From positions 64,001-128,000 of IMG/VR virus record IMGVR_UViG_3300029243_000160: a DNA stretch of 64,000 bases. The stretch is one strand, 5' to 3'. Both the position numbers and the translations under genes were made by a program. The notes beneath the pieces were generated by a model. That model searched no databases and had not been told where the DNA came from. It was given only the letters and a program-made list of their open reading frames with translations. Origin of the DNA: a virus. Of the stretch, positions 17,901 through 53,098 are shown in pieces (the first letter of the stretch is position 1; every line of letters starts with the position of its first letter).

Positions 17901-18539
17901 GCAAGACTTTCTGCTTTAGAAGCACAAAAGACTGCTCTTGACAGCATGATGAAAACGCTGGAAGTCAGCAGAAATGTACTGAATCCGCAGGCAATCACAG
18001 CAATTGAACAGGCTATCGCATCAATCACAGCCGACATTGAACGGCTTTCTGAACCTGATGCGGAAAAGACAGCTCACGCAGAGCAAGAAACGCAGAAAAA
18101 TGCTGAACAGCCTGCTCCAGAACATTCAGAATCTGTTGCAATTGATTGTGATATTGCTGACATCACAAGAACTGATGATGGCTTCTATGAATTTGAGCTG
18201 TCCATTGAGACAGTTGTGGAAGCCTTGAATCGGGCAGCAGACGTTTCCGAAGACCTTCAAAACTTCTTTGTTGAAAATGGTGTGCCGGAAAAGTCAGTAA
18301 TTGAAGCAGATGAACCATATATGGTTTATGGCGAGATGAATCCGGATATTGACGATGGTATTTCCATGCGGTTACAGCTGATAAATCCGGATATTGATGT
18401 AGAAATTCCGCTTTACAAAGAAGAATGCCATGCGTTATCTGAAAAAATTGCAATTCTGGACAAAGCTGAACCAGAGCTGCCGAAGGAAGATAACGAGAAA
18501 GAATTTGTGCAGTTGGAATTTGATTTTGACAAGGAGTGA
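14961..18539 (+). CDS. polyvalent-type large protein with zincin-like metallopeptidase domain
   Basis: 1192 aa, RBS AAGGAAGGAG. HExxH at ~aa 405 (GSLGHEWGHALDNYI, nt 16172-16186), followed by SSETEMFARAFASYV. Long Q/E-rich linkers and several further globular segments (e.g. MLLDRLRSDCEYFLG...), an architecture typical of plasmid/phage polyvalent proteins. Confidence 0.8.
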   Translation: MAKKKIEDFGEEIFGARKHLAQLNRELRATDIGDWTDAEREQNVTKNTAFPKVDYKKEYADGKDREVLYFIKTLRDKLPTQPLYPLKSLYTPEQLPEAKRQAQEDYLTTVSYVYQKAMQLEKPEDFKKFFNEVSAAKLPKSDKILKDAKKVLDFDGRWGEYTYQRFQSKLEKNKFCFSDKEKLLSNYEIYKYDGKNVKRDEQLSKAYHKDYMNVSFGYGKRIFLANNETEANPDNWKQDTYFAIAKSKVDLIAMNIPSREAIEEKLVAIEQEKPQTEKTKKAGKKALKPLQLQHIRPTTEDYRQGKPVVENDFMKDSSTATFPFRGVQFGNWTNQNDRQENLNMSFDAFKDLAKALHIHDEDVTLGGQLAIAYGARGHSGAVAHYEPAENVINLTKMRGAGSLGHEWGHALDNYIAKQIGSHEMFASDGASIDHIYGVDNPMVNLLNTMKYDNSDTGRTQFYRDAKALDGAYSTTGNQKGSNKKGLYWSSETEMFARAFASYVHDKLGESDYLVGHSEGNYPITKKDGTETTVSISPQGKERERINDAFDKLFERLKEMEILHDSGRELPKEQTNTVQKDAQEEQIQSSPAISPTSESQKTSTESKQTLQQLVENAMQKAKMMVDAESLKEGDIVRLYGDTAIDSRTMKPTELPPTYAKVDSVSESSISFKTYSDEECTKMNGISSYFSTPDEPWTKKLATQGFDVIQTKEQQLAEQMAAEQETSQQKERPVTITCIYSESLGIESGKTYSVSEFDATMKQLDDERVSNRKEGLEKYGSERAWEQQDEQSYYASLGYDKTSFTINLNDGTQETFRQDIGDGDGGVIDFVKSIGRDDLAEILQNAVVAEQQMAQEQAEPAPEVTEPKEDVQNTEQADAQSATNDHSYEYMLLDRLRSDCEYFLGTGETAENNHLCAGNPEAQIEKMQELYDMLPEKPEWLTQEDINQYAQQMIPEKEAEKTEPPSPAVSEQESETNRIADEARLSALEAQKTALDSMMKTLEVSRNVLNPQAITAIEQAIASITADIERLSEPDAEKTAHAEQETQKNAEQPAPEHSESVAIDCDIADITRTDDGFYEFELSIETVVEALNRAADVSEDLQNFFVENGVPEKSVIEADEPYMVYGEMNPDIDDGISMRLQLINPDIDVEIPLYKEECHALSEKIAILDKAEPELPKEDNEKEFVQLEFDFDKE

Positions 18540-32194: not shown

Positions 32195-32355
32195 TACACG
32201 CAGATATGCCTGTACGCTTGCTCTGATGCCTGCATGGTGATTCATAAGTAACTTATACCCCTTAAATTGAAACGCCTTAGAACGGCTCTGGGATAGCTTA
32301 GAATTGATTCAATAAAATCGGTACAAAATAGCACCGTAGTAATCAAACGACAGCG

Positions 32356-32384
32356 TTGACGTTCACGCACCGTTCTCTTATAAG
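32356..32384 (+). promoter_or_regulatory. candidate promoter TTGACG-17-TATAAG
   Basis: Read directly. It points into repeat S1 and the terminator at 32450-32486. Confidence 0.4.
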
Positions 32385-32393
32385 AAAAGATTC

Positions 32394-32437
32394 CTATAGG
32401 TATACCTCGCTATACCTGTACTCATACTTACAATCAC
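32394..32437. repeat. repeat S1 (CTATAGGTATACCTCGCTATACCTGTA..CTCATACTTACAATCAC); partner S2 at 57569-57621
   Basis: 24/27 identity in the first block with S2 and a shared CTCATACT..ACA..ATCAC tail, in the same orientation. Contains the palindrome AGGTATACCT and a TATACCT tandem. Confidence 0.6.
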
Positions 32438-32449
32438 ATAGTATAAAGA

Positions 32450-32486
32450 AAGCAGCCGAATTGCATTGTTCGACTGCTTCTTTTTG
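32450..32486 (+). terminator. rho-independent terminator
   Basis: AAGCAGCCG...CGACTGCTT stem (one mismatch) followed by TTTTT. Confidence 0.55.
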
Positions 32487-32502
32487 CCTCATATTTTGTT
32501 CT

Positions 32503-32771
32503 CAGTGTTAAACTTCAAAAATTGGTGTTAAGTTGGTGTTAAATTTTGGCTGTGCGATTGTTCCAGCCCTTGATTTTACTAACTTTCACTGTTCAAACTT
32601 TTCATTGTCGGGAATAATAAAACATATAAAATGAATCTTTTTCAAATGTCTTCATATCCCTACAAGCCTGTATTTTCACAAGTTTGAGCAAAATTTCGCA
32701 TTATGGGGAAATCACATATCTCTACTTAACTGTGCTTAACTTTTGGTAAGCTGTTGTTAAACGATTGTTAA
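32503..32771. repeat. cluster of TGTTAA-type short repeats (candidate integrase arm-type sites)
   Basis: TTGGTGTTAA x2 in tandem (32522-32531, 32533-32542); GTGTTAAAC (32505); inverted CTTAAC x2 (32725, 32735); TTGTTAA x2 (32754, 32765). The cluster ends 15 bp from the int stop. Confidence 0.5.
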
Positions 32772-32786
32772 GTCTCGCATTGTCGG

Positions 32787-34070
32787 CTATCGTTTTCTTG
32801 CACCTAATGGATTGCAAACATACTTACGTTCTCCGGACTGTTTTTCTTTCAGTCCATCGAAGTATTCGCCGAGTGATTTCATTTCCATTTGTTTCAGTTC
32901 TTTGGTTGCGTCTGCATAGATGTTCATGGTTGTCTCTGCATCTGCGTGACCCAAGATTTCCTGCATCGCTTTGATGTTGACACCAGCTTCGCACATTCGT
33001 GTTGTGAACGTATGTCTGAGATAGTGACAGCTGAATGGTGGAAGCGTAAGCCCCATCTTGTCAAGCTGTTTGAAGTTGCAATCTCGGATAATTCTTTTCA
33101 GTGCTTTGTTGAGTGTTCCCTGATGCTGAACATTCCCAAAACGATTGATAAAAATAAAATCTGTATAGCCGTCAATCTTTGACTTGCATACCAAATTATT
33201 TTCTTTTTGATACTGTCGTTCCATTCGGAACATTTCCTTGACAATCGGCAACATCGGAATGGTTCTTTCCCCTGCCTTTGTCTTCGGAAGGTTTACTGCG
33301 AAACCACAGGTTTCTTCTCCCGCACGTCTTCTGTCGAAGTACACCAGCGTGTGATTGACGCTGATTGCTTCGTTCTCCATGTCGAGGTCGCACCAGCGTA
33401 AACCTGTTACTTCTCCGACACGCATTCCGGTGTAAAGCATTACCATAAAAATCGGTTGCCAATGCTGATACTCTGGAGTAAGTGCCAGATAATTTTCAAA
33501 AACTTCCTGCTCTTTCACGGTTAAAGCTCTTCTTTTCATAATATCACGTTCCCTTGCTTTTTTCAATTCTTTCAATGCTCCGTCTGACGGATTGAACCTC
33601 ATGTATTCGTCTTCTACACCAAGTTCCAGAACCTGATGCAGGACTGTGTGTACACTGTCCACCGTACTGACTTTCAAGCTTCTTGTTTCTGCAAGGTAGT
33701 TGTAAAAAGCTCTGACATCTGACTTTCGCAGGTCGTCAATTTTTGTGTTTCCGAAGTCTGGTTCAACAAACTGTTCGTACATATAGCAATAGTTCGTGAA
33801 GGTGTTGACTTTCAATCCACGCTTCACCTGTTTCCATCTGCAATATAAATCGTTGATAGTCATATTCTTGCTATCCGGATTTATGCCGTCCAGCATATCC
33901 CTCAGAACATCGGTTTCTTTCTCTCGCAAATCTTCAAGCGTCTTTCCATACACTGTTCTTCGCCTGCCTGTTTTATCACGCCAGCGAAATTCATATGTGC
34001 CGTTTGGACGCTCGTATTCTCCTTCTTTGAGAACACGTCTTTTGCTGTCTTTTCTTCTCTCTACTGCCAT
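32787..34070 (-). CDS. int: tyrosine recombinase / integrase, Tn916-Int-like
   Basis: N-terminal arm-binding-type segment RVLKEGEYERPNGTYEFRWRDKTGRRRTVYGKTLEDLREKE. C-terminal catalytic boxes HYLRHTFTTRM and LGHADAETTMNIYAD. RBS AAGGAGAAAG. Confidence 0.9.
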   Translation of the reverse strand: MAVERRKDSKRRVLKEGEYERPNGTYEFRWRDKTGRRRTVYGKTLEDLREKETDVLRDMLDGINPDSKNMTINDLYCRWKQVKRGLKVNTFTNYCYMYEQFVEPDFGNTKIDDLRKSDVRAFYNYLAETRSLKVSTVDSVHTVLHQVLELGVEDEYMRFNPSDGALKELKKARERDIMKRRALTVKEQEVFENYLALTPEYQHWQPIFMVMLYTGMRVGEVTGLRWCDLDMENEAISVNHTLVYFDRRRAGEETCGFAVNLPKTKAGERTIPMLPIVKEMFRMERQYQKENNLVCKSKIDGYTDFIFINRFGNVQHQGTLNKALKRIIRDCNFKQLDKMGLTLPPFSCHYLRHTFTTRMCEAGVNIKAMQEILGHADAETTMNIYADATKELKQMEMKSLGEYFDGLKEKQSGERKYVCNPLGARKR

Positions 34071-40695: not shown

Positions 40696-41307
40696 TTATA
40701 CAACAGGTTCTGCTTCCAGAACAGGTACGTTCGCACGAATCATCTGTGCAAGCCCCTCTGCACCACCGTAGTAGTCAAAATCAGCTTTTGTCATTTTGAT
40801 GTTGAGAGAAAACATCACAGGAGCATCATCACGCATAGCTGGCTGTTCGGTCGGTGCATTTCCCTTTGCTTTCAGTCCGGCTTCCATGCCTTGCTTTGCC
40901 AGTGCATCTGCTGCCTCGTTCAGCACATTATCAGAATGTGCTTTCACCTTGACAAACCCAATCGGGAAATACTGTCTTGCCATTGCAATTCTTTGCTGAT
41001 AGTCCTGTGTTGCAGGTTTCTTTGCTTTCCATTCGCTGTCAGCCCATTTCTGCAACCCTTCGTAATCGTGGTACACTGTAACAGATTCCACGTCATGAAG
41101 CTTCTGATTCATCTTAAACAGCAGACGCAGAGCTTCCAACACCCCATAGATTTCTCCGGCAATATTGCGGATTCCATCTGTATCTTCGCCGTAAAAAGAA
41201 AGCTCCTGAACCGGATTAAATCCAAAGGGAGTTTCTTGCAGAATAACTGCACCAGAACCCCAGACACCATCTTTATAAGAACCGTCCGAATAAATTGCAT
41301 ATTTCAT
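40696..41307 (-). CDS. rnhA: ribonuclease HI with C-terminal extension
   Basis: Trimmed to ATG 41307 (RBS AAAGGAG). YSDGSY..GSGAV, NIAGEIYGVLEAL, VYHDYEGL, W..K and VKAHSDNVLNEAADALAKQG. Confidence 0.8.
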   Translation of the reverse strand: MKYAIYSDGSYKDGVWGSGAVILQETPFGFNPVQELSFYGEDTDGIRNIAGEIYGVLEALRLLFKMNQKLHDVESVTVYHDYEGLQKWADSEWKAKKPATQDYQQRIAMARQYFPIGFVKVKAHSDNVLNEAADALAKQGMEAGLKAKGNAPTEQPAMRDDAPVMFSLNIKMTKADFDYYGGAEGLAQMIRANVPVLEAEPVV

Positions 41308-41356
41308 AATTATCGCTCCTTTATATAGCCTTGCGATTTGTTTCTTTGTACTTATA

Positions 41357-41385
41357 ATTATAGCACAGTAGTGTACAAATGTCAA
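41357..41385 (-). promoter_or_regulatory. cassette promoter TTGACAtttGTACACtactgtgcTATAAT
   Basis: Identical to the copy at 62952-62980. Confidence 0.7.
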
Positions 41386-41450
41386 GTCGCTTAGATAATT
41401 CTGCATATAAAAATCCATGTGATATTTGTCACTGTTTTTGTGCAAGTATA

Positions 41451-41478
41451 CAAAAGCCTGCTCCGTTACAGAACAGGC
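41451..41478 (-). terminator. rho-independent terminator
   Basis: Minus-strand GCCTGTTC-TGTAACG-GAGCAGGC followed by TTTTG and the conserved GTATACTTGCACAAA block. Confidence 0.6.
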
Positions 41479-41485
41479 AATTATA

Positions 41486-42283
41486 TTACTTCTCTCTCAG
41501 CAAAATTTCTGCTGCCTTATTGATTTTCTTTGCATAATCATCTCCAAGCTCAGGGTGAATATCTGGGTGAAACATTCGCATCAGTTTCTTTTGCTGTTTT
41601 TTGATTTCTTCTGGAGAGCATTCCGTGTTTTCCAAGAATAAAACGCCTCTTGCCCATTCCATGTCCTGCTTTGATGCAGTCTTCTTTTTCACAGATTCTG
41701 CTTCCATTTCCTTTAGCTTTTGAATGTCTTGCAGTTTCTTCAAAATCTGAAATCTGGTATCATCTATCATCTGGTAGAATAAGCTGCGAAACATCGTCAG
41801 GCGTTTGGGTTCAGTCACGTCCAGCATTTTATCCTTTTTTGTGAACTCACAAGGCTCGTTCTCAGCTGCAATATATTCCGTTGCAACATTATCTGTCACA
41901 ACCTTCACTTTAACATTGCAGACAACCTTATTGGTATTCGTACCGATGTTGCGAATATCCGCACAGTAGATGCCTGTTTCTTTCAGCTCTGCAATGCTGA
42001 AAATATCTCCAAGGTCTGTCGGTTCGCCATTTTTTTCGTTTTTGCTAAAGCAAAACATACTGTGAACGCTGTCCAGATACATCGTTCCATAAGAAGATGT
42101 ATTGCTGAATATTTTCGCTTTCTCTTTTGCTTGCTCCACAAGGCGAATCAGATAATCTGCATCACAGGACTTTAAGTCAATGTGCATTGGAAGATACTGA
42201 CGGCAGGCTTTGCAAACGCAGCCGTTATATGCTTTCTTTGCAAACATTCCAGCGTCCTGCTTGCAGATAATACATTCTTTCAT
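41486..42283 (-). CDS. J-domain protein with N-terminal zinc-ribbon
   Basis: C-terminus SPEEIKKQQKKLMRMFHPDIHPELGDDYAKKINKAAEILL (HPD tripeptide). N-terminus CIICK...CVCKAC. RBS AAAGGAG. Confidence 0.8.
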   Translation of the reverse strand: MKECIICKQDAGMFAKKAYNGCVCKACRQYLPMHIDLKSCDADYLIRLVEQAKEKAKIFSNTSSYGTMYLDSVHSMFCFSKNEKNGEPTDLGDIFSIAELKETGIYCADIRNIGTNTNKVVCNVKVKVVTDNVATEYIAAENEPCEFTKKDKMLDVTEPKRLTMFRSLFYQMIDDTRFQILKKLQDIQKLKEMEAESVKKKTASKQDMEWARGVLFLENTECSPEEIKKQQKKLMRMFHPDIHPELGDDYAKKINKAAEILLREK

Positions 42284-42294
42284 TGGAATCTCCT

Positions 42295-43578
42295 TTACAG
42301 AACATTCTTATTAGGACTGGTGCTGACATCACAACCGCACAGGACAAATTTGTTTTGTGCCTTGTCTGTGATGATTTGTTCCTCTCCGTTGACAGTGATT
42401 TTTCTGGAGAGCAGGTTTTGTCCATAGTTCAGAGCGTGACGGTCAAGGCATTCGTCCAGAATGTTTCTGGCAGTTCGACCGTTGCCAAATGAAGAAAGTC
42501 TTCGTTCTCTGTCACATCGCACCTCAAAGTTGTCAAGAGCTTCCTGCGATACGATATAGCCCTTTCCGTGAGCCATAGCCTGAAAGATGTCTTTCATTTC
42601 TGTTGTGCTGTAGTCTGGGAACTCCAGATATTCTTTGATACGGCTCTTAAAACCTTCGTTGGTGTCCAGCAACCGTTTGATGTCGTTTTTGTAACCAGCC
42701 AGAATGACAGTGAACTTGTCACGATTATCTTCCATTTCCTTAATGAGCGTTGCAATGACGGCTTTGCCATATTCCGCTGTACCGTCCATAATAGCATACG
42801 CCTCGTCAATGAAGAGGACACCGCCATAGGCTTTCTGAATCAGCAGCTTTGTCTTTGTGTCACTCATTTCTCCGGCTTTCAAGAAGTTACCATCAATCTC
42901 GATACACTTGTTCTCTTTTATGTAACCGTACTTATAGAGGAATCCGGTTATAATTCTGGCAACCGTAGTTTTACCAGTACCAGCAGAACCATAGAACACA
43001 AAATGTCTGCCGTTCATGCCATACTCACTTCTGGTCTGCTTCTTTTCCTTTTTCTCTTTGGTCATTGCTTCACGTTCAAACTGCATTCTCGCAGCCATTT
43101 CAGTGACTTTCTGCTTCACCAGAGGTAGTCCAATCATATCCTGCAAATCTTTTTCCGGATTTCTGCTTCCTTCTTTGACAATCTTATTCATGACACTGGT
43201 AGGGAACAGCATTTCCATTTGCTGTAGTTTTTCCTTATCCATCTGTTCACGTTCTTTCCGAGTAAGTGTTGCATAATTGCTTTTCTTACTGTTGCCGAAC
43301 TCATCGTATTCATTGTCCTGAATTGCTTTCTGGTACATTTTCGCCAAAGGCTTTTTGAATACACCCCACTGAACCAAAGTGATGAAAAATACAATGCAGG
43401 AAATCAGCGGAACTTGTATATCATCTACCTGAAACGTACCGCCAAGCGGAATGATTGCAGTGTTCTTCAAGCGAATCATCTGATATAAAAACCAGACAAC
43501 TGCCACAATCGGGGCGGCGGTACTGAGCGTACTCAACAAAATTGTCAACGGATAACTGGTCTTCTTCTTTTTATTCAT
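42295..43578 (-). CDS. membrane-anchored SpoVK/CbbX-type AAA+ ATPase
   Basis: Trimmed to ATG 43578 (MNKKKKTSYPL...). Two N-terminal TM helices; Walker A GSAGTGKTT; Walker B GGVLFIDEAY; VILAGY; NEGFKSRI..FPDYS. Confidence 0.8.
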   Translation of the reverse strand: MNKKKKTSYPLTILLSTLSTAAPIVAVVWFLYQMIRLKNTAIIPLGGTFQVDDIQVPLISCIVFFITLVQWGVFKKPLAKMYQKAIQDNEYDEFGNSKKSNYATLTRKEREQMDKEKLQQMEMLFPTSVMNKIVKEGSRNPEKDLQDMIGLPLVKQKVTEMAARMQFEREAMTKEKKEKKQTRSEYGMNGRHFVFYGSAGTGKTTVARIITGFLYKYGYIKENKCIEIDGNFLKAGEMSDTKTKLLIQKAYGGVLFIDEAYAIMDGTAEYGKAVIATLIKEMEDNRDKFTVILAGYKNDIKRLLDTNEGFKSRIKEYLEFPDYSTTEMKDIFQAMAHGKGYIVSQEALDNFEVRCDRERRLSSFGNGRTARNILDECLDRHALNYGQNLLSRKITVNGEEQIITDKAQNKFVLCGCDVSTSPNKNVL

Positions 43579-43582
43579 TGCT

Positions 43583-43990
43583 TTACTCCATTTCTGATTG
43601 ATACTTGCTGTATGCTGGTTGAAGCTTTCCGATAACGCTTTCATAATCCCTGCATTTTCGTATGTCCTGTTCCATGACAACGCTATTGAAATGGTCTGCA
43701 ATGGTATCACACAGGGAATGAAAAACGCTATCAAGATGTGGCGGTGTCCAGATGTCAGAACGGCACAGGAATACACCGTCAAACGCATAGCTCTTTTCTT
43801 CTATCTTTGAGAGATTTTTCTGAACGATGCCACGAAATGCCCTGTTTTCTTTTCTGTCTTTGTCTAAGCCGAACATCTCCAGTGACACCGGATTTGCAAC
43901 CCAAGTAAGCCCCATATCATATTCTTTCAGAAGATGGGAAATCCAGTTGCCACAGTCAAGTTTTTCATTATCATTTACAATGTCGTGGTG
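43583..43990 (-). pseudogene. 5'-truncated paralogue of the 44316-45047 gene
   Basis: Translation HHDIVNDNEKLDCGNWISHLLKEYDMGLTWVANPVSLEMFGLDK...FLCRSDIWTPPHLD parallels MHHDFTNNNKHLDCGNWISYLLDEYKMKLRWIANPISIEMFGLDK...FLCRSDMWTPPHLD. The N-terminal ~105 aa are missing and there is no RBS. Confidence 0.65.
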
Positions 43991-44183
43991 CTTCTGAAAT
44001 TATCTTATCAAGATATTCAGATACACCTGTTTTTTTGACCTCAGATAATAGCTTTTCAGCTTCTTCACGGTTATCGCTCGCCGTAATAGGTTCGTACTTA
44101 AACAAATTGTATTCATCGTTAGTTATAAGCACGATATTCTTTTCTTCCGTGTTCATCTCTTCGGCTATAATATACTTTTTCAT
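43971..44183 (-). CDS. hypothetical protein (70 aa)
   Basis: Strong RBS GGAGGAG 7 nt before the ATG. Its 3' end runs into the truncated paralogue. Confidence 0.6.
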   Translation of the reverse strand: MKKYIIAEEMNTEEKNIVLITNDEYNLFKYEPITASDNREEAEKLLSEVKKTGVSEYLDKIISEAPRHCK

Positions 44184-44315
44184 ATCGGTTCTCCTCCAGT
44201 GTAAATTTTTATTGACAAATTAGGAAAAAGCATTGCAGATGTCGATATAACATCATACACCTTTACTTTATCTAATCTGCCAGTACCTGTTCCTAACAGC
44301 GGCATTGCTACTGTG

Positions 44316-45047
44316 CTATATCAATTTATTTCCCAGTTTTTCATACGCTGGTTGGAGCTGTTCTGCAATCGCTTTGTAGTCCCTGCACTGCCGGATTCCC
44401 TGTTCTACTTCTATCTCGTCAAAATGCTCTGCAATCATATCACAAAGAAAGCAAAAGTAATTGTCCAGATGTGGTGGTGTCCACATATCGGAACGGCACA
44501 AGAAAATGCCGTCATACTTCTCTTCTTTTTCTTCCAGTGTAGCAAGATTCAGTGAAAGCACATTTCTGAGAGCTTTGTCTTCTTTTACTTCTTTGTCCAA
44601 GCCGAACATTTCTATGGAGATTGGATTTGCTATCCATCTCAGCTTCATCTTGTACTCGTCCAGAAGGTATGAAATCCAGTTGCCACAATCCAGATGCTTA
44701 TTGTTATTCGTAAAGTCGTGGTGCATATCTATGTTTACCAGAGAAAGCTTTTCATCTTCTGACACATAGTCATGTACAAAGTCATACACATGGACATGGC
44801 TGTTTGCAATCATCACCGGAGTGTCTGGAGATTGCTTCTTTAAGATACGCTTCAAGCATTCCAATTCTTCTTCCAGAATGCCCACAGAACGCACCAGATT
44901 GGCTTGTGTGCCACCTAGGTAGTAAGATGCCCATATCAGTGTGGACAGTTCCGTGGAGTGGTCTACGCCGTCCGGAAAGCTTCTCACAGCTTCTTTTGTG
45001 ATTTTCAGAAAATAATCAAAATCAATAGAAAGGATTCGCTTAATCAC
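44316..45047 (-). CDS. conserved hypothetical protein (243 aa) with HHD / DCGNW / WTPPHLD motifs
   Basis: GTG 45047 start overlapping the upstream stop (GTGATTAA) with GAGGA RBS. Family not recognised. Confidence 0.6.
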   Translation of the reverse strand: MIKRILSIDFDYFLKITKEAVRSFPDGVDHSTELSTLIWASYYLGGTQANLVRSVGILEEELECLKRILKKQSPDTPVMIANSHVHVYDFVHDYVSEDEKLSLVNIDMHHDFTNNNKHLDCGNWISYLLDEYKMKLRWIANPISIEMFGLDKEVKEDKALRNVLSLNLATLEEKEEKYDGIFLCRSDMWTPPHLDNYFCFLCDMIAEHFDEIEVEQGIRQCRDYKAIAEQLQPAYEKLGNKLI

Positions 45048-45675
45048 GTTCCATATCCTCGCTGGTCTTCTGAGCTTCTTCATATTCATTATGAAGAAAC
45101 TCGCTGTAGCTTGCGTATACAGAGCCGTCCTCGAATCCGTATTCCTGTACATACTGGTCGAAGGTCATTTCTTTTGCCTCTTCACAGTTCTCATAAGCTG
45201 CTTCTGTAGCAGTCATGGTCACGTCATCTATATGGTCTGCAATCCATTCCTTCTTGTATTCTTCATACGCATTGAACTTTGTGGCATCAGCATACGGCGA
45301 TTTTTCAAAGAAATCCGAAAAGTATACAACTCGCAAGTCGTTCTTTCTTCCAAACTCCAGTGCTGCATTGCCTGCCCAGTTTGGAACGCCCTGCTTCTCC
45401 ATTTCATTCATCATATCTTTAATAGACAAATCGTCTTGCTTTACTGCGTTTCTCAACTCATTTACATCTTCTTTGGTATATCGGGTAAATCCGCTTGTGT
45501 TTGTTCCGTCCTCAATTGCTCTTACTGCCAGTTCTGCATTTTTCAGCTCGATATTGTCCAGCTTCAAGCAGTGTTCCCAGTACATTGCACCTTTCAAAGT
45601 CTCCTCAACTTCTGGCGTAACCTCATAACTCTTGTCGCCACAGTACAACATATAGTTTCCGTTCTCGTTTTTCAT
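45040..45675 (-). CDS. acidic hypothetical protein (211 aa)
   Basis: RBS GAGAAAGGAC. First gene behind the cassette promoter at 45777-45842. Confidence 0.65.
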   Translation of the reverse strand: MKNENGNYMLYCGDKSYEVTPEVEETLKGAMYWEHCLKLDNIELKNAELAVRAIEDGTNTSGFTRYTKEDVNELRNAVKQDDLSIKDMMNEMEKQGVPNWAGNAALEFGRKNDLRVVYFSDFFEKSPYADATKFNAYEEYKKEWIADHIDDVTMTATEAAYENCEEAKEMTFDQYVQEYGFEDGSVYASYSEFLHNEYEEAQKTSEDMERD

Positions 45676-45776: not shown

Positions 45777-45842
45777 ATTATAGCACAATAGTGTACAAAA
45801 GTCAAGCAATAACTGTTGTTTACTCTGTAAATTATCCGTTAT
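45777..45842 (-). promoter_or_regulatory. full cassette: ATAACGGATAATTTACAGAGTAA motif + TTGACTtttGTACACtattgtgcTATAAT
   Basis: -10 at 45777-45782, -35 at 45800-45805, motif at 45820-45842. Confidence 0.7.
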
Positions 45843-45924: not shown

Positions 45925-47271
45925 TCAATTTTTCAGGAGCATGATGTCGTCAGCAGCATAGCCTGTATCATTTTTTGCATAGCGAATGACAAGCGTATTT
46001 GTGCCATTGCTGTATGCAGTGAAGTTGTTTCCAATATCCTCAATTTCTTTTCCGTCACCAAGCAGTGCAATGATTTCTTCCTTGCTCATACCAACATGAA
46101 TGCCTTCGCAGAACTCCACAACATAGTCATCTTCTTTTGTAAAGAAGTCACTCGTTTTGAATCCTTTGACAAGATACTTGTCTGCATCAGCTTTCCTCTG
46201 GTCATTGGCAGGAATCAGCTTACCGTCCTTATCGACTACTTCAATGGAAATGAGCGTCTTGTCTTCTGCTTCGCTTTCATCTTCATACATATTACCGTTG
46301 AAGTATAAGAAACTGTAATCACATACAGAACCGCCCAGAGCCACGTTCAGTTTCATTGTCTTTACAAAGTCAGCCAGAGAAATATCATCATTCAGATGAA
46401 TCTCCACACCGTTGACAACTGCCTTTGACAAATCAACATTCTCGGAAACATTCTTCGGCACATCAGGCACAAGCACAGTTTCTGTAGTTGTAGTAGTTTC
46501 CGTGGTCGGTGCAGTGCTTTCTGTGGTAGATGTTGAAGTATTTCCAGACACCGTTGTTGTAGTCTGCTCTGTAGTCTTTACAGGAGCTTCTGTTGCACTC
46601 GGCTGTTCTGTCGTTGCAGCCGTGGTCGGCTTCTTTGTAGTAGTGGTAGTCGGTTTCTTCGTTGTCTGCGAAGGCTTTTTCGTTGTTGCTTTTGTAGTGG
46701 TCTTTGTGGTAGCCTTCGTGGTCTTCTGCGTAGCCTTTGTTGTCTTTTTTGTGGTCTGAGCAGGTGCGTTGTCTACAGGCTGATTATTGCTTGCAGGCTG
46801 TGTCTGAGCTGGCGAATAGTTATTTCCACCATTGTCACTGTTTGTATAAGTCACATTCTCTGCATTCGATTTCGGCTTGTTGTCAGAAACCGGAATTGCC
46901 ACATACGGCACATTGCTGTTAGATGAACCGCCGGAACTGCTGCCAGCCGAACCTGTTGCAGAACGTGTGGAACGGCTGTGAACAGCGGTTACGTTTGTTC
47001 CATCACTCTTAATACCTTTCCCTGTGCCTGTTTTGGTAGTTGTCTTTCTGGTAGAAGAGGTCGTTGCTGTACCGCTGGTTGTCGATGCCTCTGTTGTACT
47101 TGTGGAGCTGGTGTCATAGTCACCCTGCTCTGCCACAATTTCCAATTTGTTCTGATTTTCTGCTTCTTTGGCTTTATCTCCGGTAGTGTCACCGCACCCT
47201 GTCATAGAAGCACACAGGCAGGCAGCACAAACCATAGATGCAACCGTTTTCCATTTTGCTCGTTTCTTCAT
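45925..47271 (-). CDS. lipoprotein with Thr/Lys-rich repeat region (paralogue family A)
   Basis: Lipobox ...CASMTGCGD. TTKATQKTTKATTKTTTKATTKKPSQTTKKPTTTTTKKPTT low-complexity region. The C-terminal domain is shared with 48068-48814 and 53300-54247. Confidence 0.8.
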   Translation of the reverse strand: MKKRAKWKTVASMVCAACLCASMTGCGDTTGDKAKEAENQNKLEIVAEQGDYDTSSTSTTEASTTSGTATTSSTRKTTTKTGTGKGIKSDGTNVTAVHSRSTRSATGSAGSSSGGSSNSNVPYVAIPVSDNKPKSNAENVTYTNSDNGGNNYSPAQTQPASNNQPVDNAPAQTTKKTTKATQKTTKATTKTTTKATTKKPSQTTKKPTTTTTKKPTTAATTEQPSATEAPVKTTEQTTTTVSGNTSTSTTESTAPTTETTTTTETVLVPDVPKNVSENVDLSKAVVNGVEIHLNDDISLADFVKTMKLNVALGGSVCDYSFLYFNGNMYEDESEAEDKTLISIEVVDKDGKLIPANDQRKADADKYLVKGFKTSDFFTKEDDYVVEFCEGIHVGMSKEEIIALLGDGKEIEDIGNNFTAYSNGTNTLVIRYAKNDTGYAADDIMLLKN

Positions 47272-48067: not shown

Positions 48068-48814
48068 TCAGTCCTCGTTTCTCAGTAGGTAAATGTCGTC
48101 TGCGACAGGTTCTTCGCTTCCTTCTGGAGCAGTATCATATTCGATTAACAACGTATTTGTGCCGTTATTGTACGCAATCATGTCGTCCAATTCTGTTCCA
48201 GCACCAAACTGAGATTCTACAGCACTCTTTTCTGTTCCAGTTGTGATAACTCCGCAGAAATAGACGTTGAAGTCACTTCTTGTAAAGAACTGACTTGCAT
48301 GGACACCTTTCAGCTTGTAGATGCCGAAGTCTTCCGTTTTCAAGCGGTCACTGTCTACGATTTTTCCATCATAATTTTCCACTTCCAGAGATACTTCTGT
48401 GCAGTCATCTGAACCCTGTTGGTTCAAACTGTACATCGCACTGTGAAAGGAAAAGCTGCTCTCAACCGATGTTGCACCAAAGCTGTCACAGGACAGCCCT
48501 GTATCGCTTAACACCTTTTCCAGACTGGGAGCTTCATTCAAATTGATAGTTACTCCGTTGATAGTCACACTGCTCATGTCTGCATCTGTGTTGACATCAA
48601 CCGTAGGTACAACTGGATAGATGGTTTCGTCAGCTGGTGAGTTTTCCTCGACCTCAGCATCTGAACTCACTTCGCTGTCGCTTTTGCTTGCAAGCGTTTC
48701 CTGTGAGGCGTTGATGTGAATTTCCGGCTCACTGGAAGAATCATTTTGTTTGCCACAGCCTGTTACCGAAATCATCATGCACAGTGCCAGAATCAATCCG
48801 ATTTTCTTTCTCAT
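48068..48814 (-). CDS. lipoprotein (paralogue family A)
   Basis: Lipobox MMISVTGCGK. C-terminus ...YNNGTNTLLIEYD...DDIYLLRNED parallels the other two paralogues. ATGA overlap with the DUF262 gene stop. Confidence 0.75.
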   Translation of the reverse strand: MRKKIGLILALCMMISVTGCGKQNDSSSEPEIHINASQETLASKSDSEVSSDAEVEENSPADETIYPVVPTVDVNTDADMSSVTINGVTINLNEAPSLEKVLSDTGLSCDSFGATSVESSFSFHSAMYSLNQQGSDDCTEVSLEVENYDGKIVDSDRLKTEDFGIYKLKGVHASQFFTRSDFNVYFCGVITTGTEKSAVESQFGAGTELDDMIAYNNGTNTLLIEYDTAPEGSEEPVADDIYLLRNED

Positions 48815-49863
48815 TCTTCAAAGCTCCCTTCGGATTTATATTCGCTGTACGCATCATACATTGCGTTGATACGTCCGCTTACATTCCATGCGTGGTTTGT
48901 GCCATTCACAGAACAGTCGCTGTATACCGTTTTCTGTTCGCTGTCTGGTTCGTTGTTGAAGAACCAAAGCAGGAATTTCCCGATATTTTCAATGCTTTCT
49001 TTGTTTTCCTGTATTTCAAGCTGGTGACAGAAGTAGATAACATTCACAAGATTTGTTTTCTTGACAGCCCTTTTCAAAACCGCTTTTTTGCCGTTTTCTG
49101 CAACATACTCCAGTACGGAATCTGTAAAATCCAGAAGAGCCTGCATTGCTTCTGTCGTATTTGCATCGAAAGCCATGTTTTCATAACTTTCTTTGATATT
49201 CTTTGCAGACAGTTCAAACTGCCCGTCATAGATTTGCAGAGCTGTTTTGATGACAACATCTTCATTCTGATAACCTGCTCGTGCCTTATCTGTCATGTAC
49301 TTCATAAACAGGTCGGACTTTGCAAGCTGAATTACCGCTGGCAGGTTCTTTGCCTTGATTCTGGATTTTTCAATACCAGACAGGACTTTGCCGTTATTCA
49401 GTCGGAACATCATCTCTGCCAGTTCATCATCTGTTATATCGGTGAAGAAATACACTGTCATTGTGTAGCTTTCAAATGCTTCTCTCGCTTCTTCCGGCAG
49501 TTCCTCGTAAGTCATGCCGTTCAGGTCAACTTCATCACCACACCAGTCGTACCAAGGCAGGGACAGACCAGTCAAAGCAAATTCGTTATGATAGAACGCT
49601 CGAATTGCTTCGCATCGTTGTTTGCCATCGAAGCAGTCGAACACCTTGCTGCCTTTCTTGCAACCTGCCGGAGCATCAATATCTGTTTTAATAGTGTACA
49701 TCGGTGGCACTGGGTAATTATGAATCAACGATTCAATGAGCAGGCTCTGCTGAACCACATTCCAGACGTTTCCTCTCTGAATAGCATTGTCGAATACCAT
49801 GCTACCCTTTGTGACTGCCTTTGCAATCTGTTTCGCACTCCATGCAATGTTTGCCTTAATCAT
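48811..49863 (-). CDS. DUF262 (GmrS/ParB-like NTPase) domain protein without DUF1524/HNH part
   Basis: FDNAIQRGNVWNVVQQSLLIESLIHNYPVPPMY...FDCFDGKQRCEAI matches the DUF262 pattern (QR..vW, DGxQR). Confidence 0.75.
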   Translation of the reverse strand: MIKANIAWSAKQIAKAVTKGSMVFDNAIQRGNVWNVVQQSLLIESLIHNYPVPPMYTIKTDIDAPAGCKKGSKVFDCFDGKQRCEAIRAFYHNEFALTGLSLPWYDWCGDEVDLNGMTYEELPEEAREAFESYTMTVYFFTDITDDELAEMMFRLNNGKVLSGIEKSRIKAKNLPAVIQLAKSDLFMKYMTDKARAGYQNEDVVIKTALQIYDGQFELSAKNIKESYENMAFDANTTEAMQALLDFTDSVLEYVAENGKKAVLKRAVKKTNLVNVIYFCHQLEIQENKESIENIGKFLLWFFNNEPDSEQKTVYSDCSVNGTNHAWNVSGRINAMYDAYSEYKSEGSFEE

Positions 49864-50438: not shown

Positions 50439-52409
50439 TTACATTGCTTCCAGATAATCCGATTCAAAATAGGCATCTTTCACTCTGCCTTTTGTGATTG
50501 CTTTTGCGACTGCTCGCATGAACTTTCTTCTGTCCGGAATCACAACGCTGTACTGTTCATTTGTTCTTATGTTCCAGACGATTCCCTTATTCAGTCCGAA
50601 CGCAATCATATAGCAGGCACATTGCAAGAAATGCTCATGGGACAATTCTTCTACGAATTTCAGTTCGTAGACTGTGTTGTTTTTGATAACGTCTGGTCTG
50701 CCAACAATGTCGTACACATTCTCGTTACCATCAATAAACTGCATGGAAAAGTCTTCCTGCACTTCTTCTTTGCCTGTAAACTCTGTTCGCAGACGATTAT
50801 GAATCAGGGAAAGTTGTTCCTCTGTGAGAAACGGCGGCTTTACCTGATAGTAATAACGGTTCTGGTATGTTTCGTATGCTGTCAGATACAGTACCTTTTC
50901 TTCCAGTGTTGCATCTTTTTTCAAGTTCAGAGGCGGTCTGTCGTCAGCAATATCCATTGCATACCGAATCTGTGCATCAATATCATAGTTTTCAAAGAAG
51001 CTTGCTTCCTGATAGATGCCGATGCAAGGAGAAAGGTCAATCATGAAGTCTTCCGAATCCACATCAATCATGGACTTATCTGTTCTTGCTTTCTTTCTTT
51101 TGCGAATCAGCTGATAGCACTCTTCCACATCTTCTTTGTATTTGAAATCGAACATTTCACTTACCTGAAAAGGACGCTTGTACTCTCCGTTTGTCGGAAC
51201 AGGTGTCGCAACGATTTCGTCCGGAAGCACATCGCTGAACGGTTCTTTTACAATGATGATTTTTTCTTTGCCTCGGCTCATAGCAACACAGAAGATGTTC
51301 CGCAGAATCTCATACTTTACGTCCGGATAGCCCATTCTGACAGACCAGTAGTCCAGTGTATAGTCAAAGACAACACAAATCTTTCGTTCCAGCCCCTTGC
51401 TGCTGTCAAAGGTTGTGAAGATGGCTGTAGACTTATCCGGAATCGTTCTGCCTGCATTGTCATCAGAAATGCTGGCGTAAACGGTTTTCTTGTTGAACTT
51501 TTCCGGATATTTGTCCTCTAAGTCGTTCAGGACACTTGCCATTTTTCCTGTTCTTGCCCCCAAGCACAGAATGTCAGACGGCTTCTGCTTTGCCAAATAC
51601 TCAATCACATCGCACAGCTCCATTGTTTCCAGCTTGCAGTCTTTGTTCACACCATTGATTTGCTTTCCCCAGATGTCCCCAAGACGGCTTGCAAGGTCAC
51701 TACAAAGACGGAAGCACTTTGTAAAAGTAACTGTATCATACCTTCCAAGAAACTGATTGATAAAGATAGGCACATTCAGTGTTGTTTTATCGTAAATCTT
51801 CTGCTTCATATCACCAACAGCAACAATCTGCACCGCTGGATTGCTCTTCTTGACGCATTCCAGCATCTCTGCGATTTCCTGTTCGATGTCCTGATATTCG
51901 TCAATCACCAGCAAGTCATACTTCGGGACTTCGATTTTTGTCTTGTTCTTCAAGAAAATCTGAATCAAATCAGAAATGCCAGCAGATAAGTGTGCGTTTT
52001 TCAAGCACATATATGCAAATCCGTGATAGTTGGTAACAGTTACGTTCTTTCCTCGAATTTTATCTCTTGCGTCAATCTTCAAAAGTGTGTTGTAAGTCAA
52101 ATACAGCACCTTTTTGTCCGGTATCTCATTGCACAGCACCTGAATTGTTGTAGTTTTACCACTACCGATGCAGGCATCTACCAGAACATTCTTTCCTGAC
52201 TTTGCAAGAGCAATCATAGATTGCTGCTCTTCGGAAAGGTCAGACAGTTGCATAACTGGCGTTGGTGTCCACTTGTCGAAACGGCTGTCGGCAGTTCCTT
52301 TATAGTACCACTGCTTTTGTCTAGCGTCCCATTTCGCTCCAAGAGCCTTTACCTCATCTTTTTCTACATAAGGCACTTGCAGATAATGAATTGTATTTTC
52401 CCATGCCAT
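50439..52409 (-). CDS. UvrD/PcrA-like SF1 helicase with C-terminal PD-(D/E)xK-like nuclease and short N-terminal YLxVPYxEKD..WY module
   Basis: Trimmed to ATG 52409 (RBS GAAAGGAAAGG). Walker A CIGSGKTT; motif II LLVIDEYQD; motif III VGDMKQKIY; motif V SSKGLE; motif VI VAMSRGKEKI. C-terminus GRPDVI...VYELKF. Confidence 0.8.
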   Translation of the reverse strand: MAWENTIHYLQVPYVEKDEVKALGAKWDARQKQWYYKGTADSRFDKWTPTPVMQLSDLSEEQQSMIALAKSGKNVLVDACIGSGKTTTIQVLCNEIPDKKVLYLTYNTLLKIDARDKIRGKNVTVTNYHGFAYMCLKNAHLSAGISDLIQIFLKNKTKIEVPKYDLLVIDEYQDIEQEIAEMLECVKKSNPAVQIVAVGDMKQKIYDKTTLNVPIFINQFLGRYDTVTFTKCFRLCSDLASRLGDIWGKQINGVNKDCKLETMELCDVIEYLAKQKPSDILCLGARTGKMASVLNDLEDKYPEKFNKKTVYASISDDNAGRTIPDKSTAIFTTFDSSKGLERKICVVFDYTLDYWSVRMGYPDVKYEILRNIFCVAMSRGKEKIIIVKEPFSDVLPDEIVATPVPTNGEYKRPFQVSEMFDFKYKEDVEECYQLIRKRKKARTDKSMIDVDSEDFMIDLSPCIGIYQEASFFENYDIDAQIRYAMDIADDRPPLNLKKDATLEEKVLYLTAYETYQNRYYYQVKPPFLTEEQLSLIHNRLRTEFTGKEEVQEDFSMQFIDGNENVYDIVGRPDVIKNNTVYELKFVEELSHEHFLQCACYMIAFGLNKGIVWNIRTNEQYSVVIPDRRKFMRAVAKAITKGRVKDAYFESDYLEAM

Positions 52410-52448
52410 ATGCTGTGCCACCTTTCCTTTCAAGAATATTATAATATC

Positions 52449-52514
52449 ATTATAGCATAATAGTGTACAAATGTCAAGGTATATTAAGGTGTTACTCTGT
52501 AGATTATTCGTTAT
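52449..52514 (-). promoter_or_regulatory. full cassette: ATAACGAATAATCTACAGAGTAA + TTGACAtttGTACACtattatgcTATAAT
   Basis: -10 at 52449-52454, -35 at 52472-52477, motif at 52492-52514. Confidence 0.7.
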
Positions 52515-52543
52515 GTTTTTCGTAATTATTTGTGCAAGCATAC

Positions 52544-52569
52544 AAAAAGAGCAGGTTATCTGCCTGCTC
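52544..52569 (-). terminator. rho-independent terminator
   Basis: Minus-strand GAGCAGG-CAGATAA-CCTGCTC followed by TTTTTG and GTATGCTTGCACAAA. Confidence 0.7.
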
Positions 52570-52570
52570 C

Positions 52571-53098
52571 TTACAATTCCTGTTTCAAAGAGATGCCGAG
52601 CTTGTGAAACCGCATTTTGATTTCCTGCACACACGCTATGCCGATGCCTGTACAGTTCAAAAGTTCTTTTTCACTGTATTGTTTCAGAATCCCGATGGTA
52701 TCAATATCGTTGGATTTTAATGCTGTCGATGTCCGGAAAGAAAATCCAGCTTTCAAAACCGATGTATTTAGCAGCGGATTGGTTTCTGTCGGATTTCTTC
52801 TGCATCGGACTGAAAAGTATTCATCTTCCATAACACCGCCAAAATCCCGAACTACTTGTCGGATTCGCTCTTTTGTTACGCCGTACTCGTCAGCCAATCG
52901 TTCCAACGTATAGAAGTTGATATATCTTTTTTGAATGATTTCAGCATTTCTCTCATCGGTTCTGTAGAAGGCAGATTCTATCACTTCAACAAGCACATTA
53001 TGTTTTTCCTCGTCCAAGTCAATTCCGATTCGTTCCAGCATATCCTTCTGGAACGCTTTTCTACACAGCAGAGTGTTAATCTGCTCTTTACCTGTCAT
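52571..53098 (-). CDS. fusion of sigma-70 region-4-like HTH and RNA polymerase alpha-CTD-like domain
   Basis: AEIIQKRYINFYTLERLADEYGVTKERIRQVV matches the sigma region 4.2 pattern. FSFRTSTALKSNDIDTIGILKQYSEKELLNCTGIGIACVQEIKMRFHKLGISL aligns by eye with E. coli alpha-CTD [53 protein letters not shown]. Confidence 0.75.
   Translation of the reverse strand: MTGKEQINTLLCRKAFQKDMLERIGIDLDEEKHNVLVEVIESAFYRTDERNAEIIQKRYINFYTLERLADEYGVTKERIRQVVRDFGGVMEDEYFSVRCRRNPTETNPLLNTSVLKAGFSFRTSTALKSNDIDTIGILKQYSEKELLNCTGIGIACVQEIKMRFHKLGISLKQEL

Follow-up and report, generated by a model that had tools for sequence, protein, structure and literature searches.

J-domain proteins determine where Hsp70 acts and on which target. 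For instance, DjlA of E. coli is anchored in the membrane and carries a C-terminal J-domain. ClpB, an AAA+ machine of the Hsp70 system, is soluble and has two rings, pore-loop tyrosines and an M-domain that binds DnaK, and no gene for a dedicated J-protein adjoins its own gene. In addition, a J-protein is known from a phage: Rki of phage RB43 binds DnaK and stabilises sigma-32 (PMC3486835). Meanwhile, ATPases of the SpoVK, CbbX and EccA type are emerging as single-client chaperones. The SpoVK-EccA-like clade has been described as dedicated or specialised chaperones with few clients, in which a variable N-terminal region sets the client or the location, and FtsH is the sister group of this clade (PMC11513918). 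In this study, we analysed a locus in which both kinds of protein are encoded side by side. It lies in a 64,000-nucleotide (nt) stretch of viral DNA, hereafter the window (positions 64,001 to 128,000 of IMG/VR record IMGVR_UViG_3300029243_000160), where the gene of an AAA+ ATPase with two transmembrane (TM) segments (42295..43578, minus strand) is followed by the gene of a zinc-ribbon J-domain protein, hereafter the partner (41486..42283, minus strand).

We found that the conserved unit is these two genes and not the five-element cassette in which they stand. The initial annotation of this region had grouped five elements into one operon and had placed the two genes 9 nt apart; the measured distance from the AAA+ stop to the partner start is 11 nt, with AGGAG within the spacer. 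The pairing of an AAA+ ATPase with a J-protein, to which that annotation had drawn attention, extends well beyond this locus. A metagenome scan with an AAA+ profile gave 80 loci, and together with the other fetched loci these made 36 AAA+ clusters at 90% identity. The linkage was counted in those single-domain clusters, 22 in all, that had 800 bp of flank or more on each side, and 20 of the 22 have a partner homologue on the same strand. In fourteen of these 20 the two genes adjoin, at most 14 nt apart and in several cases with the stop of one overlapping the start of the other; the partner is downstream in seven, the arrangement found in the window, and upstream in the other seven. The remaining six partners stand 0.2-3.2 kb away. 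When the open reading frames (ORFs) within 8 kb of the AAA+ gene were clustered all against all, every other neighbour family was confined to 5 or fewer of 26 representative loci; two apparent exceptions proved to be antisense ORFs inside the AAA+ gene itself.

The same association was seen when we started from the partner. The partner family has 169 representatives (clusters at 50% identity, E ≤ 1e-10) among 1.84 billion proteins. Five distant partners were chosen blind to context (P0340, P0312, P0290, P0393 and P0366), two of them without the HPD motif of J-domains, and in all five cases the AAA+ gene was adjacent or one gene off; these AAA+ proteins scored 323-550 bits against the hidden Markov model of the family and have the TM segments and EYDEFG. 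The family AAA+ gene is likewise adjacent to, or one gene off, the window partner and the partners P0011 and P0003. Furthermore, the pairwise identities of AAA+ proteins and partners were correlated over 190 lineage pairs (r = 0.76), and mean identity across lineages was 53% for the AAA+ protein and 28% for the partner. Thus, the two genes stay adjacent when the gene order is inverted, when all the genes around them have been replaced and when the proteins have diverged to about 25% identity, as expected of a functional, and probably physical, partnership.

The AAA+ protein has 427 residues. The mechanical ORF (42295-43788), which had been taken as a protein of 497 aa, is over-extended, because the homologues all begin with MNKKKK (43578 in the window). 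The protein consists of an N-terminal KKKK, two TM segments, a juxtamembrane DNEYDEFGxSKK motif, the Pfam domains AAA (6.9e-12) and AAA_lid_6 (7e-7), and a C-terminal CGCDVS. The two hydrophobic segments (residues ~9-35 and ~50-76) are kept family-wide with a variable loop between them, and the linker after them is highly conserved (DNEYDEFGxSKK...LTRxERE). By the positive-inside rule, the AAA+ ring is predicted to lie on the cytoplasmic side. The closest solved structures are CbbX (1.5e-37) and EccA1 (1e-35). In a family alignment of 30 sequences, Walker A (GxxGTGKT), Walker B (DE), GY, N307, R313, R368 and R371 are invariant or nearly so. The sensor-1 residues G295 and Y296 (ILAGY) are present in 30/30, and the sensor-2 residues R368 and R371 (FGNGRTARN) are invariant and align to FANARSIRN of CbbX. 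A GY in sensor-1, an Asn ahead of the Arg-finger motif and the sensor-2 arginines are the signatures reported for the SpoVK-EccA-like clade (PMC11513918). Judged by these motifs, the AAA+ protein is a member of this clade, distinct from SpoVK, CbbX and EccA. The initial annotation had indeed proposed a 2-TM ATPase of this clade with canonical Walker motifs, and the invariant Walker A and B, the two hydrophobic segments and the nearest structures all agree with it.

The family could be thought to be a mobile copy of SpoVK, with both genes hitch-hiking on one conserved backbone, so that the pairing would be incidental. JGI labels family members as stage V sporulation protein K, and spore_V_K (TIGR02881) is the best NCBIfam match. 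However, that match reaches 169 bits against a cutoff of 423, so that the protein is not a housekeeping SpoVK; CbbX (TIGR02880) and EccA (TIGR03922) give 156 bits against 459 and 148 against 467, and the TPR region typical of EccA is absent from the protein. Furthermore, a 2-TM anchor stands in place of the small N-terminal domain of SpoVK, the gene travels on mobile elements whereas SpoVK proper is confined to the sporulation network, and the backbone is not conserved, yet the adjacency outlives inverted order and divergence to about 25% identity. We rejected this explanation, which has almost no chance of being right.

The partner is a protein of 265 aa. Its AlphaFold2 model (mean predicted local distance difference test score, pLDDT, 87.6) begins with a zinc ribbon and a helix, continues with a beta-domain (63-157) and a long helix (160-199), and ends with three C-terminal helices (203-214, 224-237 and 249-263). 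Among 11 aligned members of the close family, C4, C7, C24 and C27 of the zinc ribbon are invariant, as had been claimed for an N-terminal CxxC...CxxC ribbon, and so are H74, C78, C122, C145 and HPD239-241; helix II is basic in this close family. The ribbon is present in 126 of 136 full-length partner representatives. For the C-terminus, the close-family profile matches more than 30 solved J-domains of the PDB (best E = 1e-6, J positions ~15-58), the matches spanning helix II, HPD and helix III, and Foldseek against BFVD found viral J-domains (probability 0.96-0.99, 1.5-1.9 Å root-mean-square deviation). For the N-terminal part, Foldseek against BFVD found a Siphoviridae phage protein annotated as "Short C-terminal domain" (SHOCT; E = 8e-6). 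The window protein scores 17.2 bits against DUF4428 (PF14471; threshold 27.8), and several family members carry a precomputed PF14471 match. The whole model gave nothing significant against the PDB with Foldseek, probably because it is multi-domain. Across lineages, the best-conserved region of the partner is the beta-domain and the next helix (EP..L.MFR..QMI), which is a likelier candidate for contact with the AAA+ protein or the client, judging from this conservation.

Our preferred reading, to which we give an even chance, is that the pair forms a membrane-tethered dedicated chaperone, in which the 2-TM AAA+ protein and its J-domain partner are coupled to host DnaK. In this scheme, the single-domain AAA+ ring would be fixed at the cytoplasmic face of the membrane by its N-terminal two-helix hairpin. 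The soluble partner, composed of the zinc ribbon, the beta-domain, the long helix and a C-terminal class-C J-domain, would bind the ring or the client through its conserved beta-domain and helix, and its J-domain would set off ATP hydrolysis by host DnaK, loading DnaK on the client at the membrane. The pair would probably help the element to establish itself or to assemble its membrane-associated proteins. We infer the DnaK coupling, the client, the role and the physical interaction of the two proteins from sequence, and the recruitment of DnaK by the partner from the type of its domain. A search for the Hsp70 signature motif in the ORFs of the window, and in those of the flanks fetched by that time, found none, which is consistent with the use of host DnaK. 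In addition, FtsH-like genes occur near the family AAA+ gene in three lineages, and an element-encoded FtsH beside the AAA+ gene is consistent with a role in membrane proteostasis. The HPD motif was counted in the 136 full-length sequences among the best 150 partner representatives, and 105 of them (~77%) keep it. Since HPD and the basic helix II are kept in about three quarters of a fast-evolving family, this argues that contact with Hsp70 is under selection in most lineages.

Several observations weigh against this reading. First, two single-domain AAA+ loci with full flanks (L103 and L105) have no partner within 10 kb of the AAA+ gene. Second, the J-domain is less regular than the "textbook" domain of the initial annotation. 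The HPD and the J-domain profile matches bear that description out, but Pfam DnaJ (PF00226) gives 27.4 bits against a gathering score of 27.8 and covers helices II-III, and the chain of the model stops after the third C-terminal helix, so that helix IV is missing. Third, HPD is lost in 31 of the 136 representatives (~23%), which retain the helix II/III pattern (A..LFML..DYT..L...Y..L). The sampled lineages show the same: HPD is intact in 14 of 20 and changed or missing in 6, and the pairing persists. HPD is replaced by HPE in L089 and by LQYSTN in L099; L093 and L096, whose partners are short, have FSDN and FDSF, and the partners of L094 and L072 have no J region whatever. Because partners without HPD still stand beside the AAA+ gene, DnaK recruitment is not the sole basis of the linkage and, from these sequences, DnaK stimulation cannot be a universal requirement. 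Fourth, the ATPase itself is unusual. N307 is invariant, and the residue four positions on is Lys311 in 28/30, which puts a Lys at the first Arg-finger position (NEGFKSR in the family versus NPGFRSR in CbbX; the second Arg, R313, is kept in 29/30). Furthermore, where CbbX has the pore-loop Tyr114, 28/30 sequences have E, A or D and 0/30 an aromatic residue. With a Lys at the first of these positions and no aromatic residue at the second, hydrolysis rate and substrate engagement may be atypical.

The pore aromatic is truly lost, and specifically in the single-domain family, because similarly anchored tandem-AAA proteins keep PYVG and QYVG. We also considered F232-L233 as a shifted pore loop and rejected it, as the tandem-AAA relatives hold both the equivalent Tyr (DGTYLK) and, downstream of it, the canonical PYVG. 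The membrane remodelling attributed to the ATPase in the initial annotation is a conjecture, and the canonical pore-loop tyrosine is absent. Since the ATP site is intact and this tyrosine is absent, we read the AAA+ protein, within the membrane-tethered chaperone, as an ATP-driven anchor or switch for a narrow set of clients and not as a general threading unfoldase.

A stronger version of the DnaK-coupled reading is a mobile-element AAA+/Hsp70 bichaperone, in which the tyrosine-less SpoVK-clade ring would pass substrates to host DnaK through the co-evolving J-adaptor and would take over membrane proteostasis. Large gut elements may use such a machine during establishment, for example in the assembly of membrane machinery or in disarming a host response. 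We put this forward tentatively, as less likely than not.

The loss of HPD also bears on a pair that works independently of Hsp70. Here, the "J-domain" would be mainly a structural helical hairpin that binds or regulates the AAA+ protein, in the way that J-like domains without HPD, such as that of Pam16, do; the ribbon and the beta-domain would be a substrate adaptor, and HPD would be a relic or a lineage-specific extra. The 31 of 136 representatives and 6 of 20 lineages without HPD keep the helix II/III pattern and the adjoining AAA+ gene; the beta-domain and helix (EP..L.MFR..QMI) are the best-conserved part; and the N-terminal module of the partner is also found in phage proteins whose C-terminus is SHOCT and not a J-domain. 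However, J-domains with HPD work via Hsp70, and the retention of HPD and a basic helix II in ~77% at a mean identity of ~28% argues for selection on the Hsp70 contact. We regard this explanation as doubtful.

Relatives of the AAA+ protein show further variation. A related subfamily (L113-L123 and L021; for example L118:9188-11734) has proteins of 830-890 aa with two TM segments and tandem CbbX-like AAA+ domains. It has no J-partner within 10 kb, and it has shared neighbours of its own (~460 aa and ~850 aa). In addition, the AAA+ protein of L099 (9998-11716; also L100 and L101) carries an insertion of 147 aa in the Walker A loop, between GTGK and TT. Because the insertion terminates in HN and is followed by Thr, its sequence identifies it as a mini-intein. 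The partner of this lineage is one of those without HPD. The AAA+ protein P0106 (674 aa) contains the homing-endonuclease Pfam domains PF05204 and PF14528, presumably at the same site.

The rest of the cassette is lineage-specific cargo. Six minus-strand ORFs are enclosed by a promoter-like and a terminator-like site, as had been claimed. The promoter-like site (45805..45777, minus strand) lies 5' of the first gene and consists of TTGACT, 17 nt and TG-TATAAT with the TG of an extended -10, and was called on its match to the consensus (11 of 12 positions). The strong hairpin resembling an intrinsic terminator (41478..41456, minus strand) has a stem of 10 bp, including 6 GC pairs, followed by TTTTGT, and lies 8 nt past the stop of the partner gene. 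No other minus-strand terminator-like site was found between 45777 and 41478. A single transcript across the cassette is plausible, and this claim is positional, because the region contains 17 promoter-like sites where 14.4 are expected, which is no enrichment. In the order of transcription, the ORFs are gene A, gene B, a 70-aa ORF, a truncated copy of B, the AAA+ gene and the partner gene. Thus, all the elements listed in the initial annotation are present on the minus strand, and its order differs in that the 70-aa ORF precedes the truncated copy. One conserved operon of five genes was ruled out by the variability of A, B, the 70-aa ORF and the truncated copy among lineages.

Gene A (45040..45675, minus strand) encodes an acidic protein of 211 aa with an isoelectric point of 4.37. 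It had no match in Pfam, PHROG, NCBIfam or PADLOC searches, and homologues occur near the family AAA+ gene in just three other lineages. Gene B (44316..45047, minus strand) starts with GTG, overlapping the stop of gene A (GTGATTAA), and encodes a protein of 243 aa with the motifs SIDFDYF, DMHHD and WTPPHLD. Its large family counts at least 454 clusters of homologues, all of them devoid of Pfam domains, and D9, D107, H110, D111, W124 and P192-H-L-D195 are invariant in the family alignment. The AlphaFold2 model (pLDDT 94) predicts an alpha/beta fold, with weak Foldseek matches in the PDB (E ~0.02) to agmatinase, formimidoylglutamase and acetylpolyamine amidohydrolase. The residue pattern looks like that of a metal-dependent hydrolase, and an arginase/deacetylase fold is our guess from the model.

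The 3' part of gene B has been replaced in comparison with close relatives. About 585 bp of the window (~43992-44576), comprising the 3' part of B and the 70-aa ORF (43971..44183, minus strand), are peculiar to this variant of the element and are missing in L018, L020, L044, L045 and L048, which are 97-99% identical to the window on either flank of the insertion. The relatives have just one B gene, which is intact and whose 3' part corresponds to the "truncated copy" of the window. The junction falls in the motif that codes for MHHD (window 43583-44576; compare L020:9540-9800), and the 70-aa ORF closes with codons that are B sequence read out of frame (GCACCACGAC, coding for MHHD in B). No match to the 70-aa ORF was found by tblastn over all fetched loci. 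The truncated copy itself (43583..43991, minus strand) preserves the original B gene from the HHD motif onwards to the stop, without its 5' part, and contains an ORF of 110 aa with its ATG at 43915. It is 55% identical to residues 134-242 of B (BLASTP, E = 2e-49), and the B homology extends upstream of the ORF 43583-43915 to the stop of the 70-aa ORF (~43991). Compared with relatives at 97-99% identity, the truncated copy and the 70-aa ORF therefore read as the scar of a recent replacement or insertion and not as designed parts of an operon. In addition, the displaced 3' end of B (window 43641-43991) has 87% DNA identity to a B-family gene (L004:12735-13085) of the L004/L067 lineage, which is otherwise diverged from the window. 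Cassette-like recombination among B-family genes is suggested by this similarity.

Both ends of the cassette are flanked by genes on the same strand. Just upstream lies the gene of a protein of 448 aa (45925-47271, minus strand) with a lipoprotein-type signal (...SMTGCGD) and long low-complexity repeats rich in Ser, Thr and Lys; it closes at a terminator-like hairpin of its own (45902-45875). Directly downstream is an RNase H gene (40696-41445, minus strand) with its own promoter-like site of the sigma-70 type (41385-41357, 12/12 with TG). RNase H-like genes also occur near the AAA+/J pair in four other lineages.

The pair belongs to a mobile element, as the initial annotation had supposed. 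The window encodes a type IA topoisomerase (2-1993, minus strand), an FtsH-like AAA protease with intact HEAGH (7171-8967, plus strand; TIGR01241 422 bits, cutoff 600), a polyvalent LPD protein (14961-18539), a Tn916-type integrase (32787-34070, minus strand), GmrSD_N (48811-49863) and a UvrD/PD-(D/E)XK helicase (50439-52634). It further encodes a primase-like protein, a DHH protein, RNase H, a DNA polymerase exonuclease-like protein and TraX. No capsid, terminase, portal or tail protein and no recognisable type IV secretion system ATPase was found in PHROGs and Pfam scans of the larger ORFs of the 64-kb window. Relatives carry genes for ParA/ParB, DUF932, NikA-like, TraX, RelB, AcrVA2-like, TnpB, DUF3846 and DUF4942 proteins. 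Genes on the plus strand (5.7-32.2 kb) run towards those on the minus strand (32.8-64 kb) and meet them at ~32200-32800, where the cumulative GC skew also has its maximum; this point beside the Tn916-type integrase may be a replication terminus. The FtsH-like gene stands directly upstream of the AAA+/J pair in two lineages (L001:1713-3536 and L059:1086-2927) and 35 kb off in the window.

The carrier is a prevalent, large and poorly known mobile element of human-gut Oscillospiraceae and other Clostridia, with a size of some 130-200 kb or larger. Among the matches listed in the AAA+ profile scan, an IMG/VR contig of 131,468 bp has an AAA+ protein 100% identical to that of the window. The AAA+ and J clusters recur on contigs of ~192-214 kb and also of 480-503 kb. 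In two lineages, the contigs that bear the pair include lengths of 198,844, 199,232, 200,125, 200,336, 201,281, 204,460 and 206,580 bp, among others, which hints at a ~200-kb replicon. The cluster member RJW77333.1 comes from the genome record of Coprococcus sp. AF38-1, and one of the 480-503-kb contigs is from that record. The J-protein is listed in RefSeq as WP_303766883.1, "J domain-containing protein [Ruminococcus callidus]", and 143 contigs carry exactly this sequence. A partner profile scan of 185,579 GTDB species genomes found only two tiny contigs of Oscillospiraceae metagenome-assembled genomes, plus unrelated J-domains. Against annotated plasmid and phage collections, the cassette gave no megablast match; against phages and plasmids, the J-protein gave no tblastn match, and the AAA+ protein gave distant matches of the ATPase domain (identity of 39% or less, all without the TM region), which include gp596 of Bacillus phage G and a Finegoldia plasmid.

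Some neighbours of the pair recall genetic conflict. Enzymes that process ADP-ribose occur within a few kb of the pair in several lineages, and their identity varies by lineage: an ADP-ribosyl glycohydrolase (L001:10247-11134; L127:4817-5857, there between the J gene and the AAA+ gene), PARG (L129:3326-4312) and NADAR (L010:8155-8619, in L010-L012). An AcrVA2-like gene (L004:5434-6423) stands two genes upstream of the cassette. Together these hint at a counter-defence neighbourhood. The pair could then be a host-takeover or anti-defence factor, which would sequester or redirect DnaK at the membrane and so alter the stress response or disable a defence. Rki is a precedent for a phage J-domain (PMC3486835), the window adds GmrSD_N, the polyvalent LPD protein and RNase H to these neighbours, and the cassette has a promoter-like site that would be a strong promoter of its own. 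However, this proposal leaves the conserved, ATP-competent membrane AAA+ protein unexplained, lineages without HPD would be unable to hijack DnaK, no known anti-defence family was matched, and the neighbours are so variable that guilt by association is weak. We consider it unlikely. The opposite role, in anti-phage defence or abortive infection, where the AAA+ protein would be the sensor or motor and the partner would serve as effector or adaptor, seems very improbable to us. AAA+ ATPases are frequent in defence systems, and the element has other defence-like genes (GmrSD_N and the UvrD/PD-(D/E)XK helicase). However, PADLOC gave non-specific P-loop matches for the AAA+ protein (E ≥ 2.6e-4, 13-18.5 bits) and none for the partner, the two proteins have no effector domain of the nuclease, protease, pore-forming or NADase type, and the pair is missing from species-representative genomes, which are rich in defence islands. 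The earlier statement that the pair lies outside known defence and anti-defence modules thus agrees with PADLOC and the literature searched, where matches to the AAA+ protein were at P-loop level only.

If the membrane-tethered, DnaK-coupled reading is true, the linked pair would be a new wiring of Hsp70 to an AAA+ machine and a new mode in which a mobile element uses the host chaperone. The pair is abundant, on prevalent, little-known large elements of gut Clostridia, and the lineages with and without HPD form a natural series for the contribution of the J-domain. The literature searched held no link of a J-domain with DUF4428, SpoVK or AAA_lid_6, leaving aside the "ZnBd" operon partners in Fig. 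3A of PMC11513918, where prior notice is possible.

The locus resembles several known systems in part. Like the SpoVK-EccA-like clade (PMC11513918), the AAA+ protein has AAA with AAA_lid_6, GY in sensor-1, an Asn before the Arg-finger motif and the sensor-2 arginines. However, its N-terminus is a 2-TM hairpin with a DNEYDEFG linker, whereas this region is a small beta/alpha domain in SpoVK and a set of TPR repeats in EccA, and CbbX lacks a membrane anchor. It scores far under all three equivalog cutoffs, differs from CbbX in the pore position of Tyr114 (E/A/D) and in the Lys at the first Arg-finger position, and has a J-domain genomic partner, of which none was found for the clade in the literature searched. 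Compared with the class-C J-proteins DjlA and Rki, the partner similarly has a short C-terminal J-domain with HPD on a protein otherwise unrelated to DnaJ; it is encoded by a mobile element like Rki and predicted to act at the membrane like DjlA. Unlike in these proteins, the anchor is on the separate AAA+ protein, the ribbon and beta-domain are unrelated to theirs, helix IV is missing, and HPD is lost in about a quarter of the partner family. With ClpB/Hsp104-DnaK-DnaJ the locus shares a ring AAA+ protein that is joined, conceptually, to the Hsp70 system; unlike ClpB, this protein is single-ring, membrane-tethered, without pore tyrosine and genetically coupled via the J-protein. FtsH and Msp1/ATAD1 also have an N-terminal membrane anchor and a cytoplasmic AAA+ ring of the classical assemblage, but the AAA+ protein here has no protease domain, no aromatic pore loop and a lid of the lid_6 type instead of the lid_3 type. 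Meanwhile, the N-terminal CxxC...CxxC ribbon and beta-domain of the partner are like those of DUF4428 (PF14471) and the SHOCT phage proteins, except that the partner ends in a J-domain and the window protein is under the DUF4428 threshold. In summary, both domain families are known, and J-proteins of mobile elements (Rki) and at the membrane (DjlA) have precedent; what is new is the conserved genetic coupling of a J-protein to a SpoVK-clade AAA+ protein, the 2-TM anchoring of this clade, and a partnered family that has lost its pore aromatic.

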